DNA of 64,000 nt, taken from assembly GCA_951406725.2 (NCBI GenBank), contig OX597840.1:23622001-23686000 (forward strand), in the 5' to 3' direction. Positions within the stretch are counted from its first letter, which is position 1; each line of letters starts with the position of its first letter. The notes below the pieces were generated by a model that saw nothing but the letters and a program-made list of their open reading frames with translations, made no database searches and had not been told where the DNA came from. This stretch comes from Octopus vulgaris (Eukaryota). This document shows, in pieces, positions 8,678-62,095 of the stretch. A program made the translations under genes and the position numbers.

Positions 8678-9830
8678 TTATGTCTTCTCTACTGTATGTG
8701 TATGTGTGTGTCTATTCAACTGATGCCTTTGAGAAAATGACTCACCACAGATATCACAATGACAAGGTTTCTCACGAGTATGAATGCAATTGTAAGTAAC
8801 CAAATGACTATTACGAGAGAATGATTTACCACAATTATCACACTGATAAGGTTTCTCACCAGTATGAATGCGATTGTGAATAACCAATTGACTATTATGA
8901 GAGAATGATTTACCACAGATATCACAATGATAAGGTTTCTCACCAGTATGAATCTTCTTATGGTTAGTTAAAACTTTACGTTCACAAAATGATTTACCAC
9001 AAATATCACAATGATAAGGTTTCTCTCCTGTATGAATGTGTTTGTGATTAGTCAACTGCCTATTACAAGAGAATGATTTGGCACAGATATCAAAATGATA
9101 GGGTTTCTCTCTGCTTATGTTTAGTTAAAACGTTCTTTTTAGAGAATGATTTACCACAGATATCGCAATGATATGGTCTTTCTCCTGTATGAACACGTTT
9201 GTGCTTAGTCAATTGACTCTTAGAAGGGAATAACTTACCACAAATATCACAATGATATGGCTTCTCTCCTGTATGAGTAAGTTTGTGCCTAGTCAAGTGG
9301 TTACTTAGAGAGAATGATTTACCACAGATATCGCAATGATATGGTCTCTCTCCTGTATGAATGCGATTGTGATCAACCAAATTACTATTATGAGAGAATG
9401 ATTTACCACAGATATGACAATGATATGGTTTCTCTCCTGTATGTGTAAGTTTGTGGCTACTCAACTGACTACATTGTGAGAATGATTTACCACAGATATC
9501 GCAAAGATATGGCCTCTCTCCTGTATGAATGCGATTGTGAGTAACCAAACTACTATTACGAGAGAATGATTTACCACAGATCTCACAATGATATGGTTTC
9601 TCTCCTGTATGTGTACGTATGTGATCAGTCAAGTGAGTGCTTCCAGAGAATGATTTACCACAGATCTCACAATAATATTGCTTCTCTCCCGTATGTGTAC
9701 GTTTGTGTTTAACATCGTCACTACTGTAAGAAAATGATTTTCCACAGATATTCCAGTGATATGGCTTTTCTTCTTTATCAAGATTTTCTGATTCAGTTAA
9801 ATTATTCATTTTGAGAGAATTACTTATCAT
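8678..9830 (-). pseudogene. C2H2 zinc-finger gene (ZNF-A), frameshifted near 9105-9115: 6 intact fingers before the shift, about 5 partly decayed fingers after it (truncated gene or pseudogene)
   Basis: ORFs 9839-9090 and 9055-8678 are in different frames; linker deletion (CATAAG-CAGAGAGAAACCC); acceptor at 10105, donor at 12630. Confidence 0.82.
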
Positions 9831-11442
9831 ACACTTCACAATGATAAAGTGTTTTTCATTTCCATGAATATATTTCTGTTCACTTTTGTCACTTCATTCA
9901 GATAACAATTTAATGCAATGTTTCTTCCATATATTCCACAGAATGAAAAATATTCCGCTGTCTCTTGTTATAGACTGTATTTATATACAGAGGTAGACTT
10001 ATTCATGAATGCTCCTTACAAATATACTGTCTTCCTTTAGGTGATGAGAATATCAAAGACACTTCTGAATGGAGAGATTTCCTTAACGTCAAATGTTGTG
10101 ATATTCTGAAATAGGAAAAGAGGCAGTAAGACAAAACTGGATAGTTGACCAACATAAGTAATTAAAGATTGCAGATTTTATATCACTACCATTGTCATGC
10201 ATTTACTGTCCATGCTTGCATAAGTAGATTGAGTTGGAAGGTGTTAGAAGCTAATGGGAATGGAGCTAGCCAAAACGAAAATATAGTGGGCATAACAGAA
10301 TAGTGAGTTGATGCCATCCAGAATTTCACAGAGCAAAGTTGCCACAAGTGAAATGGGCTGTTTATGAAGTGATCAGAGTTAATGATAAAGAAGCATTGTT
10401 ACTCGTCTGCCGCCTTTCCGCAAACTAATTAAAACTCCCACTTCTCTTCATGGATACTGAATTGCCCTCTAGGATCCATACGTGCCCACCCTGAAGGGCT
10501 GGAGAATGTCATAGCAGAACAGTGCTATGGTGTGACAACTAAAATAGCTTGCTACAATATTAAATACTGGCAGAATCTCTAAGATGCCGGATTAATTGCT
10601 TAACAGCATTTCGTTCGTAAATAGCTTTGTCAAACTAGAGATAAAAGCAATCAGGAATGGGAGTGTGTCTGTGCATTGTTTATTTCTCTTCAATCAGGTA
10701 CACACTGTGAGGGCGAGTACGATCGATCATTTGAGCATCCAGATGCCCCTCCCACCTAACCACAATCCCTTCTCTGAACACCAGATTGCTAGCTAGCCCA
10801 CAGTGAAGGTCCCTCTTTATATTTCGTCTGTCATAAGTTGGTGCCCCAAACGTCTTTCCTTTCAAAGCATGACTTCCACTGAGGTCGACTTTCATCCTTT
10901 CGAAGTAAATAAAATAAGCAGTAGAGCACTCGAGTCCCTGAAATTAACTCGTCCCCTTTCTACAAATTTCAGGTTTTGTAATTAAAAATACAAAAAGAAA
11001 AATCATTATTATTATTATCATCAACATTAATATTTTATAAACCCCAAAAAGTAGAGTCGGCTCATGGAGCAAAATCCTGACTGCAAATACATCTTACAAT
11101 TTCATGAGTCCTTTATTAAAAAAAGGGACAATGGTAATTATTCTCCTTCCTCTCGCAGGTGTTACGACCACTCACGGAAACGGAGACACACGTCTTTGTG
11201 AGCAGAAGGATCTCCTCAGTAGAATCAATAGCTGCAAACCATCTGAACACCTCACAGGTTGTGTCCGGGTAGAATGGATATAATTCGCCTCTACTCATCT
11301 ATAGACAGAGATTTTCTTGTGGGGTGCTTGTAAAGACAAGAACATTACATACGTTGGTGAGACATCTAGAAGCATTGCAGGGGGATGAAATAAAAATTAG
11401 AGGCAGCATGACCACATAACCAGTCCTCCATACTCTACCAAA

Positions 11443-14277: not shown

Positions 14278-15304
14278 CGCCAAGATCCTCATGATCGTAA
14301 TAAAGATTCCATTTCATAGTAGTTCTCTAATTCTCTCATAGATGGCTCTACTGACTAGTGGGTTCCTTTCAGTTTCTCTCTTAGTTTCATTCTGTTAATA
14401 TCTGTATTGTGTGTCAAGGCGCTCATTATTATTAATTAGACTAATTAGTTATCGGTCTGTGATTTGCTGTTTTTGTCTGAATACGGTAAGTTGACGATGA
14501 TGATAATAATACTACTAATAACAATGTAATTAATAGAATTCTGTGAACTTCTCGGTGTCACAGTAATTATTTCGAAGCGGAAACATAAAAAATTTAGGAA
14601 AATATATTTCCTCGTCTTAAATAATAACTTCCAAAGTGAAATGTTGGTTTGTTGTTTCTGAAAACCTATGGTCGACTGTTCACGAACGAAATGCTGTTAA
14701 GCAAATTCTGGATGGCATCAACTCACTACTCTGGTCATGTTATGCCCACTATATTTTCGTTTTGGCTAGCTCCATTCCCATTAGCTTCTAACACCTTCCA
14801 ACTCAATCTACTTATGCAAGCATGGACAGTAAATGCATGACAATGGTAGTGATATAAAATATGCAATGTTCAATTACTTATGTTGGTCAACTATCCAGTT
14901 TTATCTTACTGCTTCTTTTCCTATTTCAGAATATCACAACATGTTGACGTGAAGGAAATCTCTCCATTCAGAAGTGTCTTTGATATTCTCATCACCTAAA
15001 GGAAGACAGTATATTTATAAGGAGCATTCATGAATAAGTCTACCTCTGTATATAAATACAGTCTATAACAAGGAACAGCGGAATATTTTTCTTTCTCTGG
15101 AATGTGGAGGAGGTGATTGCTTTCCTGGTGAATTAAAGTTGGATAAATTTACAAAGGAGTTGACAATTTCCATCTGCTGTTTTAGATATCGAGTAAGATC
15201 GTGGATGGAAGAAAGATTGCATTAAATAATTCTCTGCATGAAGTGACACGACGGAACAAAAACATATTCATAGAAAGGAAAAACACATTATCTTTGTGAT
15301 ATGT

Positions 15305-15955
15305 ATGATAAGTAATTCTCTCATAATGAATAATTTAAGTAAACCAGAAATCCCCGACACAGAGGATAAGGTATATATTTGTAATATCTGTGGTAAATCC
15401 TTCCTTCAGTATCGTTACTTAACTTATCACCAACGTACACATACAGGAGAGAAGCCATATCACTGTGATATCTGTGGTAAATCATTCTCTTATAATTGTC
15501 ATTTGGTTACTCACAAACGCGTTCACACGGGAGAGAGACCCTATTATTGTGATATCTGTGGTAAATCATTCTGTGAACGTACAGTTTTGACGAAACATAA
15601 GAAGATTCATACTGGTGAAAAACCATATCAGTGTGATATCTGTGGTAAATCATACTCTCGTAATAGTCAATTGGTTAGTCACAATCGCACTCATACAGGA
15701 GAGAGACCATTTAATTGTGATATCTGTGGTAAATCATTCTGTGAACGTAAAGTTTTAACTAACCATAAGAAGATTCATACTGGTGATAAACCATATCATT
15801 GTGATATCTGTGGTAAATCATTCTCTCAGAGTGGTAGTGTCACTACACACAAACGTACACATACAGGAGAAAAACCTTATCATTGTTATATCTGTGGTAA
15901 ATCATTCTCTCAAGGAAATCACTTGACTAATCACAAACTTACACATACATGGTAG
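15305..15955 (+). CDS. C2H2 zinc-finger protein (ZNF-B): 7 fingers, truncated by a premature stop; decayed fingers follow to about 16730
   Basis: Same N-terminus ([11 protein letters not shown]) as the paralogs; linker mutated to HTW*; donor 14485|gtaagt, acceptor |14930. Confidence 0.8.
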   Translation: MISNSLIMNNLSKPEIPDTEDKVYICNICGKSFLQYRYLTYHQRTHTGEKPYHCDICGKSFSYNCHLVTHKRVHTGERPYYCDICGKSFCERTVLTKHKKIHTGEKPYQCDICGKSYSRNSQLVSHNRTHTGERPFNCDICGKSFCERKVLTNHKKIHTGDKPYHCDICGKSFSQSGSVTTHKRTHTGEKPYHCYICGKSFSQGNHLTNHKLTHTW

Positions 15956-23638: not shown

Positions 23639-24949
<1,311 letters not shown>

Positions 24950-34321: not shown

Positions 34322-34539
34322 TTACAAAGAAATTCGATTGAATTCTGATGATAAACATTCAATTGCAATGAAACATTCAGTTTTTTCAAGTGCTTCTTTT
34401 AATATTCGAAGTGTACGTTTTGCCGGATCACAACTTTGAACCCATGTCAGAAGCATCTGGAAACTTTGTTCCCTAACGCTATGAGAATGGTCAAGCTTGA
34501 TGATGTCCAGGTCATGTTGTTTAATTCCTAATTCCCTTC
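34322..34539 (-). CDS. Terminal exon, death domain GRELGIKQHDLDIIKLDHSHSVREQSFQMLLTWVQSCDPAKRTLRILKEALEKTECFIAIECLSSEFNRISL*
   Basis: Acceptor tatttcttttgcag|, phase 1; RELG, EQxxQMLxxW and TLxxLxxAL death-fold pattern; minus-strand AATAAA at 34070-34075. Confidence 0.88.
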
Positions 34540-39084: not shown

Positions 39085-40230
39085 ATGGAACCTGTTCTCA
39101 GTCATTCACACAAATAATATATCTCAGGTGAAGGTAAAATTTATAGAAATCAATTACAGTTATTTTATACTCACCAACAGACTCTACAACCGTCTGGACT
39201 TCTTTCTCTTCAAACTTTGGACACACTGAAATAAGAATTGAAAATTAAGAATGGAACCTCTTCTCAGTCATTCACAAAAACAATATTTCTCAGGTGAAAG
39301 TAAAATTTATAGAAATCAATTACAGTTATTTTATACTCACCAACAGACTCTACAACCGTCTGGACTTCTTTCTCTTCAAACTTTGGACACACTGAAATAA
39401 GAATTGAAAATTAAGAATGGAACCTCTTCTCAGTCATTCACAAAAACAATATTTCTCAGGTGAAAGTAAAATTTATAGAAATCAATTACAGTTATTTTAT
39501 ACTCACCAACAGACTCTACAACCGTCTGGACTTCTTTCTCTTCAAACTTTGGACACACTGAAATAAGAATTGAAAATTAAGAATGGAACCTCTTCTCAGT
39601 CATTCACAAAAACAATATTTCTCAGGTGAAAGTAAAATTTATAGAAATCAATTACAGTTATTTTATACTCACCAATAGATTCTGAAACCGTCTGGACTGC
39701 TTTCTCTTCAGACTTTGGACACTCTGAAATAAGAATTGAAAATTAAGGATGGAACCTCTTCTCAGTCATTCACAAAAACAATATTTCTCAGGTGAAAGTA
39801 AAATTTATAGAAATCAATTACAGTTATTTTATACTCACCAATAGATTCTGAAACCGTCTGGACTGCTTTCTCTTCAGACTTTGGACACTCTGAAATAAGA
39901 ATTGAAAATTAAGAATGGAACCTCTTCTCAGTCATTCACAAAAACAATATTTCTCAGGTGAAAGTAAAATTTATAGAAATCAATTACAGTTATTTTATAC
40001 TCACCAATAGATTCTGAAACCGTCTGGACTGCTTTCTCTTCAGACTTTGGACACTCTGAAATAAGAATTGAAAATTAAGAATGGAACCTCTTCTCAGTCA
40101 TTCACAAAAACAATATTTCTCAGGTGAAAGTAAAATTTATAGAAATCAGTTACAGTTATTTTATACTCACCAACAGACTCTGCACCCACCTGGACTGCTT
40201 TCTCTTCAAACTTTGGACACACTGAAATAA
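39085..40230. repeat. 166-bp tandem repeat, about 7 copies (exon+intron unit), three sequence variants
   Basis: Exact 166-bp periodicity of the donor sites at 39175, 39341, 39507, 39673, 39839, 40005, 40171. Confidence 0.97.
39175..40221 (-). CDS. Seven 51-nt phase-1 microexons: 40171-40221 (VCPKFEEKAVQVGAESV); 40005-40055, 39839-39889, 39673-39723 (ECPKSEEKAVQTVSESI); 39507-39557, 39341-39391, 39175-39225 (VCPKFEEKEVQTVVESV)
   Basis: Each copy has acceptor ttatttcag| and donor G|gtgagta, no stop, and is in phase with the RING and death-domain exons; 115-nt introns. Confidence 0.8.
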
Positions 40231-41109: not shown

Positions 41110-41252
41110 CAAATCCACTTTTGCTGCGTATGTGTTGTTGACATATGAGGCATTGCTTAAATATCATTTGAGAACAGCAATTCTGACAAATAACAGTATG
41201 TTGACATGGATGGAGTGTGACAGTAGCCTTTTTCTCTTGACACCACCGACAC
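41110..41252 (-). CDS. C3HC4 RING finger exon CRWCQEKKATVTLHPCQHTVICQNCCSQMIFKQCLICQQHIRSKSGF
   Basis: Acceptor ttttgttccacag|, donor G|gtaaga; 143 nt, phase 2 to 1; all 8 Zn ligands present, with PCxH as in MIB/IAP-type RINGs. Confidence 0.92.
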
Positions 41253-42221: not shown

Positions 42222-42400
42222 AGTGATTGTAAAAATGTTTTTAATTTTTCTTTCAAATGTTGATTTTTTATGTAGTCCAATGGGGTCACTTTCTTCTTCT
42301 TATTACGATGGTATAAGCTGGCTCCTTGGCTGGCAAGATAACTCCCAACTACTATTCCAGAGAGCCTCCTATCCATGTCCAGTTGGAGCTCTTTGCAGCA
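42222..42400 (-). CDS. Exon CCKELQLDMDRRLSGIVVGSYLASQGASLYHRNKKKKVTPLDYIKNQHLKEKLKTFLQS (ankyrin C-cap, MIB-like)
   Basis: Acceptor tttcatcatttgtag|, donor CT|gtaagt; 179 nt, phase 0 to 2; YLAxxGAxLxxxN and TPLD pattern; not in ORF track. Confidence 0.88.
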
Positions 42401-44491: not shown

Positions 44492-44704
44492 CTCATCTAA
44501 AATGGGAATGGGTTCCACCTCAGAATGGAACATCTCTTTCTTTATTATGGAGAGGTGCAAACAATTATTGCCATCCTTGTCGACAGCATTCATATTTGCA
44601 CCATGTATAATAAGTTTATGGATTATTCCGAGGTGGGCCCTGGAGACGGCTTTCAGCAATGGTGTTATTTTCTTATGATTCCCAATATCCAGTTTCACTG
44701 AATC
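44492..44704 (-). CDS. Ankyrin exon DSVKLDIGNHKKITPLLKAVSRAHLGIIHKLIIHGANMNAVDKDGNNCLHLSIIKKEMFHSEVEPIPILDE
   Basis: Acceptor ttacttccgcaaag|, donor GAG|gtaagt; 213 nt, phase 0 to 0; resembles the last ankyrins of MIB proteins. Confidence 0.9.
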
Positions 44705-48800: not shown

Positions 48801-48837
48801 CTGGGCCAGCATCAACGATACCACACCATAATGTTGC
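48801..48837 (-). CDS. 37-nt exon (K)QHYGVVSLMLAQ completing an ankyrin repeat
   Basis: Acceptor ctctttgtataactttcag|, donor CAG|gttagt; bridges phase 2 to phase 0 exactly and supplies helix 2 after GDTPLHLAVQK. Confidence 0.82.
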
Positions 48838-51090: not shown

Positions 51091-51956
51091 TTTTGAACTG
51101 CCAGATGGAGAGGAGTGTCACCATCATTGTCCACTTTATTGGCATCGATGCCATTTTGTTGTAGGAGAAGTTTAGCTGTGTCTGTGTGTCCTTTCACACA
51201 GGCATGATGTAGAGGTGTCCAGCCACTGTTGGTCACCACCCTCACATCAGTGCCATTTTGTTGTAGGAGAAGTTTAGCTGTGTCTGTGTGTCCTTTCACA
51301 CAGGCATGATGTAGAGGTGTCCAACCACTGTTGGTCACCACCCTCACATCAGTGCCATTTTGTTGTAGGAGAAGTTTAGCTGTGTCTGTGTGTCCAGCCT
51401 GACAGGCAAGATGTAGAGGTGTCCAACCATCGTTGTCCACCACCCTCACATCAGTGCCATTTTGTTGTAGGAGAAGTTTAGCTGTGTCTGTGTGTCCATT
51501 CTGACAGGCAAGATGTAGAGGTGTCCAACCATCGTTGGTCACCACCCTCACATCAGTGCCATTTTGTTGTAGGAGAAGTTTAGCTGTGTCTGTGTGTCCA
51601 TTATACGAGGCAAGATGTAGAGGTGTCTGACCATATTTGGTCACCACCCTCACATCAGTGCCATTTTGTTGTAGAAGTTTAGCTGTGCCTGTGTGTCCAT
51701 TATATGAGGCAAGATGTAGAGGTGTCCAACCATCGTTGGTCACCACCCTCACATCAGTGCCATTTTGTTGTAGGAGAAGTTTAGCTGTGTCTGTGTGTCC
51801 ACGATAAGAGGCAAGATGTAGAGGTGCATGACCACTGTTGGTCACCACCCTCACATCAGTGCCATTTTGTTGTAGGAGAAGTTTAGCAGTGTCTGTGTGT
51901 CCATGAAGTGAGGCAATATGTAGAGGTGTCCAACCATCATTATTTGGCTGAGTGAC
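51091..51956 (-). CDS. Single exon with 8 full near-identical ankyrin repeats (102-bp, 34-aa unit; one 33-aa unit) plus the start of a ninth
   Basis: Acceptor atcttttttag|GTC, donor AA|gtaagt; 866 nt, phase 0 to 2; unit GxxPLHxAxxxGHTDTAKLLLQQNGTDVRVVxxx. Confidence 0.95.
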
Positions 51957-55453: not shown

Positions 55454-55610
55454 CTGCAAAATGTTATTTCCTTTGCTACTTAACAGGACTTTGACTACAT
55501 CTTCATAGTTCTTCCTCACAGCCCGATGTAGAGGTGTGTTGCCCCATGAGTTCTGCTTATTAACATTTGCTCCCCTGGAGACTAAGAAGGCCACAGCATC
55601 AATTTTACGG
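55454..55610 (-). CDS. Ankyrin exon (S)RKIDAVAFLVSRGANVNKQNSWGNTPLHRAVRKNYEDVVKVLLSSKGNNILQ
   Basis: Acceptor ttcttcctttcag|, donor CAG|gttagc; 157 nt, phase 2 to 0; GANVN and GNTPLH motifs. Confidence 0.9.
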
Positions 55611-58019: not shown

Positions 58020-59359
58020 TGATTTTTATATATACATTATTTATTTAACATGTTTCGGTTCTTGAAATGACGAACCTTATCAAAAAAAATTTATATATAA
58101 AAAAGATAGTTCATGCTATCAAATATAAAAAATTCATATATAATAAAAAATTCATATATAGTGGAGCGAGTCCATGCTATATGTTTAAAGAGTATGCAGT
58201 AGTAGTTCATAGTGGTGATATGCATTCAATATAAAAAATTCATGTTCTTGAAAAAGCGAGGAATTCATTTTAGGTTTTACCTTGTGTTCCAATGGGAGCA
58301 ACTGTGATGACTGTTGGTTGGTGTCTGTTCGAATAGTTCTGGTGAATCTTGTGAAATGTTTGGGTTTTATATCACCTGTTAGGTGGCTAGTCCAGCGGAA
58401 CGGGACGTCATCAAAGTTTTGACCAATCGTCTCATTAGGTGGCTAGTCCAGCAGAACGGGACGTCATCAATGTTTAGACCAATCAGAATCGGGTCTGACC
58501 CTTAGCTGTATCGTATGTGGAAACCGACCAAGCAGGGTGACAATAGATTGTCCACTGAGGTAATACATCAGTGGACAATCTATTCTCACAAAGGCAAAAT
58601 TGTCTTCTAAAATTACGGATGCAAAAGTAAAAAAATGTGGTAGATCGAACTGTGCAACATGTCCTAACCTATTGGAAGGATCTGAATTCTTCTTTAAAGA
58701 GGGACAGAAATTCAAGATCAAATCTAACTTTACTTGTGCCTCTGAAAACATAATTTATGTCATTAAATGCTCGGGCTGCCACCAAGACTACGTGGGTTCC
58801 ACGGGACTATCACTCAGGCGTAGATGCACACTGCATCGACAACAGATTGCATTCCCAGAATATAGAATGATACCTTTTAGTGAGCACATTGAGAAATGCG
58901 CAAAGCAACTACTGCCACAATTTTTAATCTTCCCATTTTACCAATGTGCTTTCGGATCATCAACACAAATGAGACTGAACAAGGAAACATTCTTCATTGA
59001 AAAGTACAAACCCAGACTCAACCATCCGAACATACTGACACAGAGAAATTAACAAGGGAAAGGAAAAAAATTTTTAAGCGATTATCTCCCTTACACCGGA
59101 AGAAATCACTCACTACCTCCCCTTATTTAGAAATCTCCTGAAAATAAACACAACGATAACTCCATGCAATATAAACATAACGTCACAAGAAATTTGAAAA
59201 GCTACACGCGAAACTGGTAATTTCTTTAAAAATTTTAAAATTATGTCATTTTAAGGAAAGGAAAAAGAATTTTTCCAATATTCTCCAGACATTTTGACAC
59301 AAATATATATATTTTTTAACATTTAAGCCTTCTGTCGTTTTTTCACACTTTACTATTTT

Positions 59360-61943: not shown

Positions 61944-62095
61944 CTATACACAGCATAATGTAATGCTGTCAGACCTTCTTTGTCACTCATGTCCATATTG
62001 GCTCCAGATTCTATCAAGAAGGCTATTAGACTTGTGCTGCCCTGTTCACAAGCTGCCATTAAGAAAGTTTTACTGTCAGAATCTATTTGGTTAAC
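61944..62095 (-). CDS. Ankyrin exon VNQIDSDSKTFLMAACEQGSTSLIAFLIESGANMDMSDKEGLTALHYAVY
   Basis: Acceptor tctttcttttcttcag|, donor AG|gtaagg; 152 nt, phase 0 to 2; GxTALHYA ankyrin motif; not in ORF track. Confidence 0.9.

Follow-up and report, generated by a model that had tools for sequence, protein, structure and literature searches.

The exon at positions 51956 to 51091, on the reverse strand of a 64,000-nucleotide stretch of the Octopus vulgaris genome (hereafter the window), is the most variable part of the ankyrin stack in a family of Octopus genes that combine ankyrin repeats (ANK), a RING, a linker and a Death domain, and that derive from Mind bomb. In this family, blocks of 102 nt are gained and lost as a whole, turn and helix variants are reshuffled, and amino-acid changes are in excess at ankyrin positions 1, 3, 5, 10, 13 and 14. 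At the scale of the family, codon models favour positive selection on the contact positions.

Near-identical ankyrin units in a single exon

The first-pass annotation of the window had claimed eight tandem units of about 102 bp in one exon, and the exact boundaries of this exon, the fourth of our gene model, bear this out. Its acceptor TAG/GTC is at 51956 (phase 0) and its donor AA/GTAAGT at 51091 (phase 2), and the 866 nt in between form an open frame throughout (288 codons). The 5′ junction was placed by splice sites together with RefSeq proteins, and at the 3′ junction contigs guessed as RNA, which belong to the family and are 90% alike, join at 51091. A tandem repeat of period 102 is detected by TRF (7.8 copies, 91% matches, score 1226), and Pfam Ank recognises 8 stretches (E 5.6e-84). 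Units were delimited at the TPLH motif, and their length has to be corrected from 33 to 34 aa. Because any two of them differ by 1-15 nt of about 102 nt, and because O. sinensis proteins carry similar arrays, an assembly artefact is unlikely.

Among the 24 polymorphic nucleotide columns, 21 fall in ankyrin positions 1-14 and 3 in positions 15-33. The framework, which the first-pass annotation called invariant, is not entirely so, as unit 3 carries D18G and misses one Leu codon. At the protein level, variation is found mainly at ankyrin positions 1, 2, 3, 5, 10, 12, 13 and 14, while positions 6 and 18 have one change each, and all the beta-turn and helix 1 variants listed earlier were recovered in the units. 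Evidence for new combinations of these is weak in the window, where 7 units give no full four-gamete set and 4 of 24 site pairs are incompatible. The close subfamily shows them clearly, with 2 full four-gamete sets for its 46 units.

The variable sites had also been equated with the positions randomised in designed ankyrin repeat proteins (DARPins), which we take to be 2, 3, 5, 13, 14 and 33. This numbering agrees with alignments of D12 repeats, as the repeats of 5LEB differ at these six positions. The equation holds for five of the six (2, 3, 5, 13, 14), while in the octopus units position 33 is invariant and positions 1, 10 and 12 vary. Variable sites are enriched for non-synonymous change, with 16 of the 23 minimum amino-acid changes among the window units falling on the six DARPin columns (exact P = 1.8e-4 against random six-column sets). 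In internal DARPin repeats, surface positions are the ones randomised, according to the available part of PMC8683736. Placed by canonical ankyrin numbering rather than by coordinates, the variable face of the array likely lies on the concave side. Octopus units further resemble DARPins in their constant, self-compatible framework and in their predicted fold, the AlphaFold model of the homologue P0122 aligning with the extended DARPin 6MOL at a TM of 0.91. They differ from them in being natural and in standing within a longer stack, and their binding is putative.

The gene around the array

From splice sites, joints in guessed-RNA contigs and homologues, a model of 17 exons was built on the reverse strand (Table 1). 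Three ANK exons precede the array, which is followed by a 37-nt exon, another ANK exon, one for a helical region and the C3HC4 RING exon; the 51-nt cassettes, seven in number, come next, and the 72-nt and Death exons close the gene. The start ATG of exon 1 is located 22 nt past the window end. The number of linker cassettes, seven here, is 2, 4, 5 and 6 in four paralogues. The PDB neighbours closest to the Death domain are TNFR1, Fas, TRADD and RIPK1, and those closest to the RING are the cIAP/XIAP RINGs. In the AlphaFold model of P0122, the ankyrin repeats form one continuous stack, predicted with confidence, and the death domain is folded; the RING and linker have a pLDDT under 50.

Table 1. 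Features of the window (positions are those of the window; −, reverse strand).
Feature	Position	Strand	Evidence and remarks
Exon 1, 3′ part, first ankyrin helices	63939..64000	−	GT donor, phase 0; matches N-terminus of P0124/P0121
Exon 2, ankyrin repeat, 152 nt, phase 0 to 2	61944..62095	−	Splice sites, 20 genome matches, Mind bomb exon match
Exon 3, single-copy ankyrin repeat	55454..55610	−	Pfam Ank; hypervariable at positions 3, 5, 10, 13 across 29 paralogues
Exon 4, array exon	51091..51956	−	Eight 34-aa ankyrin units (one of 33 aa) and start of ninth repeat; 155 + 7x102 - 3 nt
Exon 5, 37 nt, completes ninth repeat	48801..48837	−	Splice sites; similar letters bridge 51091 and 44706 in guessed-RNA contigs
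Exon 6, ankyrin repeats	44492..44704	−	Pfam; joint 44492-42400; homologous to end of Mind bomb ANK region
Exon 7, Mind-bomb-type helical region after ANK	42222..42400	−	Guessed-RNA joints; 49% identity to Mib exon
Exon 8, C3HC4 RING, eight of eight zinc ligands	41110..41252	−	Pfam zf-C3HC4_3, E 3.6e-9
Seven tandem 51-nt phase-1 cassette exons, 17 aa each, variable linker	39175..40221	−	Within 166-bp repeat
72-nt exon, first Death-domain helix	38048..38119	−	In-frame TAG at 38060-38058
Last exon, Death domain	34322..34539	−	Pfam Death, E 6.3e-7; best PDB match TNFR1 death domain, E 1.7e-4
C2H2 zinc-finger arrays, one type (12 protein letters, not shown)	8678-9893, 15242-15955, 23639-24949		Apparent frame breaks in first two
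Reverse-transcriptase-like frame, 696 aa	29252-31342	−	Judged by eye
GIY-YIG-like frame	58564-59052	−	Judged by eye

Neither NACHT nor NB-ARC was detected in Pfam scans of 3 full-length homologues or in the 17-exon model, and membership in the NLRs was rejected on this ground. The scans of the same 3 homologues gave no ZU5 either, and a RING is present instead, so that the gene was not retained as a canonical ankyrin (ANK1-3), a class with 24 ANK repeats and ZU5-ZU5-UPA ahead of its death domain.

Origin from Mind bomb

A two-RING Mind bomb gene, the likely donor of the family, is found at C26:2513800-2568200 (−) of the same genome. It matches exons 2, 6, 7 and 8 (tblastn E 7e-12 to 9e-7, exon 6 giving 7e-12), and shares intron position and phase with the family at five junctions (exons 2/3, 3/4, 5/6, 6/7, and the RING end). 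The protein P0125 matches the MIB1 ANK structure 8V0E at E 6e-12. The central layout of ANK followed by RING is kept relative to Mind bomb, and homology with the C26 gene covers the ANK, the post-ANK helical region and the first RING. These sequence comparisons show that the family descends from Mind bomb, of which it kept the ANK and first RING.

The family is nevertheless distinct from Mind bomb proper. Pfam scans of 3 full-length homologues contained no N-terminal substrate-binding module (MIB_HERC2-ZZ-MIB_HERC2 and REP), and the gene model begins at an ankyrin helix; none of the 10 MIB_HERC2 matches of the genome is on C27, which carries the window, or on C29 or C31. Where the C26 gene has a second RING, the family has a single one followed by cassettes and Death, and the coiled coil is missing together with the terminal, catalytic RING. 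Membership in Mind bomb was rejected for the lack of these N- and C-terminal parts. On the other hand, the array exon, the cassette linker and the Death domain are additions, and the family counts many copies versus one or two for Mind bomb. The length of 155 nt common to a unit-less array exon and a Mind bomb exon was considered and discarded as a sign of homology, the two being offset by four codons.

Size of the family and changes in unit number

The array exon has 46 matches in the same genome, mostly on C29. For the Death exon 134 matches were found among 150 scored, and for the RING exon 80 among 130, which are numbers of matches and not of genes. More distant matches of the RING and Death exons crowd on C31. 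From 40 loci, 32 array exons were delimited (L005 was dropped as a duplicate of L004, L006, L017, L048 and L052-L057 had no delimited exon, and frameshift-broken units were excluded). In 29 of the 32 copies, the length is within 3 nt of 155+102n, with n = 1-13; 28 are in frame, and 4 are out of frame as assembled.

Neighbouring units are often almost the same, as unequal crossing-over predicts: over positions 1-14, a difference of no more than 1 nt was seen in 9 of 36 adjacent pairs and in 1 of 112 non-adjacent ones. Among the 46 close units, three haplotypes of positions 1-14 are identical between different genes. Of two pairs of likely orthologues, L009 and P0121 of O. sinensis agree in how many units they have and in how these are ordered, a single change on the face setting them apart, and L008 (5 units) and P0122 (7 units) differ in both number and content. 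Invariance of the array would have weakened the initial proposal; unit number varies among paralogues, and also between two species in the case of L008 and P0122.

Protein searches of limited reach returned exclusively Octopus relatives (18/18 and 19/19, from sinensis, vulgaris and bimaculoides), all under automatic names, and the distant representatives looked up were again Octopus proteins (10/10). The choice of the query mattered: the array exon led to generic long ankyrin proteins, and exon 6 to the family. No description of the octopus family was found in the mostly open-access literature; supplements of genome papers may list the expansion. Copies of exon 6 are also found by the dozen, some with stops, in a tandem array of period ~262 bp at C9:9565802-9586214.

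Probable selection on the contact positions

Site models M2a and M1a were compared with a GY94 codon model written for this analysis. The test statistic (2dL) was 19.3 for the 8 window units, 89.5 for 52 close units and 166 for 80 older units. The sites found were among 1, 2, 3, 5, 13 and 14, and 1, 3, 5, 13 and 14 came out in all three sets. Exon 3 is single-copy and therefore cannot shuffle internally; its 29 paralogues (out of 30, L078 being excluded for a stop) yielded a 2dL of 125 and an M2a omega of about 13, at the sites given in Table 1. Neutral simulations with blocks on shuffled trees, a recombination null that covers the 8-unit and exon 3 sets, reached at most 12.6 (8 units, 41 runs) and 24.5 (exon 3, 32 runs). 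A rate-hotspot model, which includes a fast neutral class, is beaten by selection for the 52 units (p 0.0017) and for exon 3 (p 0.001), but fits the 8 units of the window equally well (p = 0.53). Positive selection is thus favoured at the level of the family, and in the window alone it is not separable from a hotspot.

Flanking ANK exons 2 and 6 gave 2dL values of 2.6 and 8.2 (14 copies of exon 6 were used, those of the C9 satellite being excluded). In the RING exon, the M0 omega was 1.09 and the 2dL 12.2, which means that constraint is weak family-wide, and that the codon model may overstate omega. In a conservative count, in which multi-step paths were given their most synonymous resolution, S and N per site were equal in the DARPin codons (1.06 vs 1.06; 1.71 vs 1.66). 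Between the variable face positions, the TPLH codons do not change at the protein level. The face positions stand far above the weak constraint of these young genes.

Gene conversion had been invoked to homogenise the scaffold. Silent divergence of the framework is 5.2% within genes and 4.8% between genes, versus 1.7% for the flanking intron. Since it is above that of the intron, recent amplification suffices to account for scaffold identity, and conversion, although possible, was not retained as a separate process.

Fate of the window copy

The recognition array of the first annotation is in fact part of a Mind-bomb-derived ANK-RING-Death gene devoid of a NOD domain, and in the window copy this gene has a premature stop. 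The TAG (codon 750) of its 72-nt exon is TGG (Trp) in the three closest paralogues and in one older one. It may reflect an assembly error, a null allele, exon skipping or A-to-I rescue. The copy lies in a zinc-finger cluster on C27. A partial copy in the opposite orientation, with only exons 6 and 7, is found ~33 kb beyond the window end (C27:23718921-23724794, +). The gene also looks chimeric: its RING and exon 3 are closest to a gene at C29:23.72-23.74 Mb, whereas its Death exon most resembles those at C29:29.52 and 29.61 Mb (96%), that of the former gene being 54% alike. Two Death types are thus found behind similar ANK arrays.

For this locus only, the odds seem to us balanced that the gene is a pseudogene in decay, with an array that is a frozen sample of family diversity. 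The position of the TAG upstream of the Death exon argues for decay, together with the private changes P>L and R>Q of the RING (CLICQ, where 17/17 close paralogues have CPICR), the D18G change and codon loss of unit 3, and an isolated place on C27 next to the partial inverted copy. However, 749 codons are open with intact splice sites, and the stop is ~10 nt before the last junction, a distance at which mRNA decay is usually escaped. Moreover, the 72-nt exon is symmetric and could be skipped, editing of UAG to UGG is conceivable in coleoids, and the TAG might be an error of the assembly. Decay is about as likely as a functional truncated form. Relocated to a zinc-finger cluster on another chromosome, the copy would encode a product without death domain and with a weakened RING, and is likely either decaying or a decoy.

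Discussion

The boldest reading, at a probability of roughly 0.45, is that octopuses have rebuilt Mind bomb into an intracellular immune receptor class of their own. It would comprise about a hundred ANK-RING-Death genes, with a subfamily making new binding surfaces through gain, loss and recombination of DARPin-like units in one exon, and would amount to a NOD-less, NLR-like repertoire differing between individuals. In the reading that we favour, unequal crossing-over would set the number and order of the 102-nt units, and changing foreign ligands, probably pathogen proteins, would keep the contact codons diverse by selection. Ligand binding would then cluster the death domains and recruit partners of the TNFR/RIPK/FADD type, and the IAP-like RING may add ubiquitin. 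That the array is the ligand-binding surface of an intracellular sensor signalling via its death domain has, judging from sequence, about an even chance. The family as a whole is likely a library of germline-diversified intracellular sensors or adaptors.

Other readings of the family were weighed against this one. The genes could encode E3 ligases that vary in their substrates, in effect natural bioPROTACs, in which the array binds a target, the RING ubiquitinates it, and the death domain only localises or oligomerises. Mind bomb ancestry, the proximity to cIAP/XIAP RINGs and the retention of zinc ligands and CPICR in all 17 close paralogues are in line with such an activity. Yet the RING retained is RING1 of Mind bomb, and the corresponding part of human MIB1 (ANK-RING1-2) is inactive as a ligase and dispensable for Notch signalling, in the available part of 10.1101/2024.03.01.582834; MIB2 requires its second RING, in the available part of PMC7815719. 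As the coiled-coil dimer module is lost as well, we consider E3 function to be an unlikely main role. Alternatively, diversifying selection would be real but the partners endogenous, such as self/non-self markers, gametes, neurons or selfish elements. The sequence signal would be identical, and fungal arrays of this kind serve allorecognition (accessible text of PMC4986451). However, the association of cytoplasmic ANK with a TNFR-type death domain and the clustered birth-and-death expansion point to immunity, and so does the role of MIB2 in TNF death signalling (PMC7815719, same part), so that endogenous partners appear rather improbable.

Finally, the variation might be neutral, and result from slippage and local hotspots of mutation or conversion in young, weakly constrained duplicates, with no adaptive diversity in binding. 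The window-only test leaves the hotspot unrejected, omega is near 1 in the RING exon, and frameshifts, stops and a satellite built of exon 6 are found, all of which would fit. But the single-copy exon, the older subfamily and the fungal repeats all vary at the same structural positions, next to invariant TPLH codons, and the hotspot model is rejected in the two larger sets. We therefore regard neutrality as very improbable.

The closest known parallel to the family is found in fungal NLRs whose ANK repeats are highly conserved (Podospora Pa_3_8560 and Pa_2_8180); in the accessible text of PMC4986451, they have near-identical tandem ANK units, variation in repeat number, shuffling, and positive selection on the hairpin and inner helix, and conserved repeats of this type are rare in animals (0.8%). 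The analogy with them, drawn from the start, is apt for the mode of repeat evolution, but does not extend to architecture: the octopus family is animal, has no NACHT/NB-ARC and hence no NOD domain, and its Death effector follows the RING at the C-terminal end. Canonical ankyrins and other ANK-Death proteins (ANK1-3) share with it an ankyrin stack and a C-terminal death domain, a likeness to which automatic names such as 'ankyrin-3-like' can be traced. Unlike them, the octopus genes are without ZU5/UPA, contain a RING, and have near-identical repeats that are hypervariable at the face. We conclude that they are neither NLRs, nor Mind bomb proper, nor canonical ankyrins.

Immune recognition is poorly mapped in cephalopods, and automatic names (MIB2-like, ankyrin-3-like, PP6 subunit-like) conceal these genes. 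In the family, the part of Mind bomb that Notch signalling can do without has been put to new use. Being clustered, and joining an accordion-like, positively selected ankyrin face to a death domain, it makes a strong candidate for a diversified sensor repertoire, one that converges on the arrays of fungal NLRs as well as on libraries of engineered DARPins.
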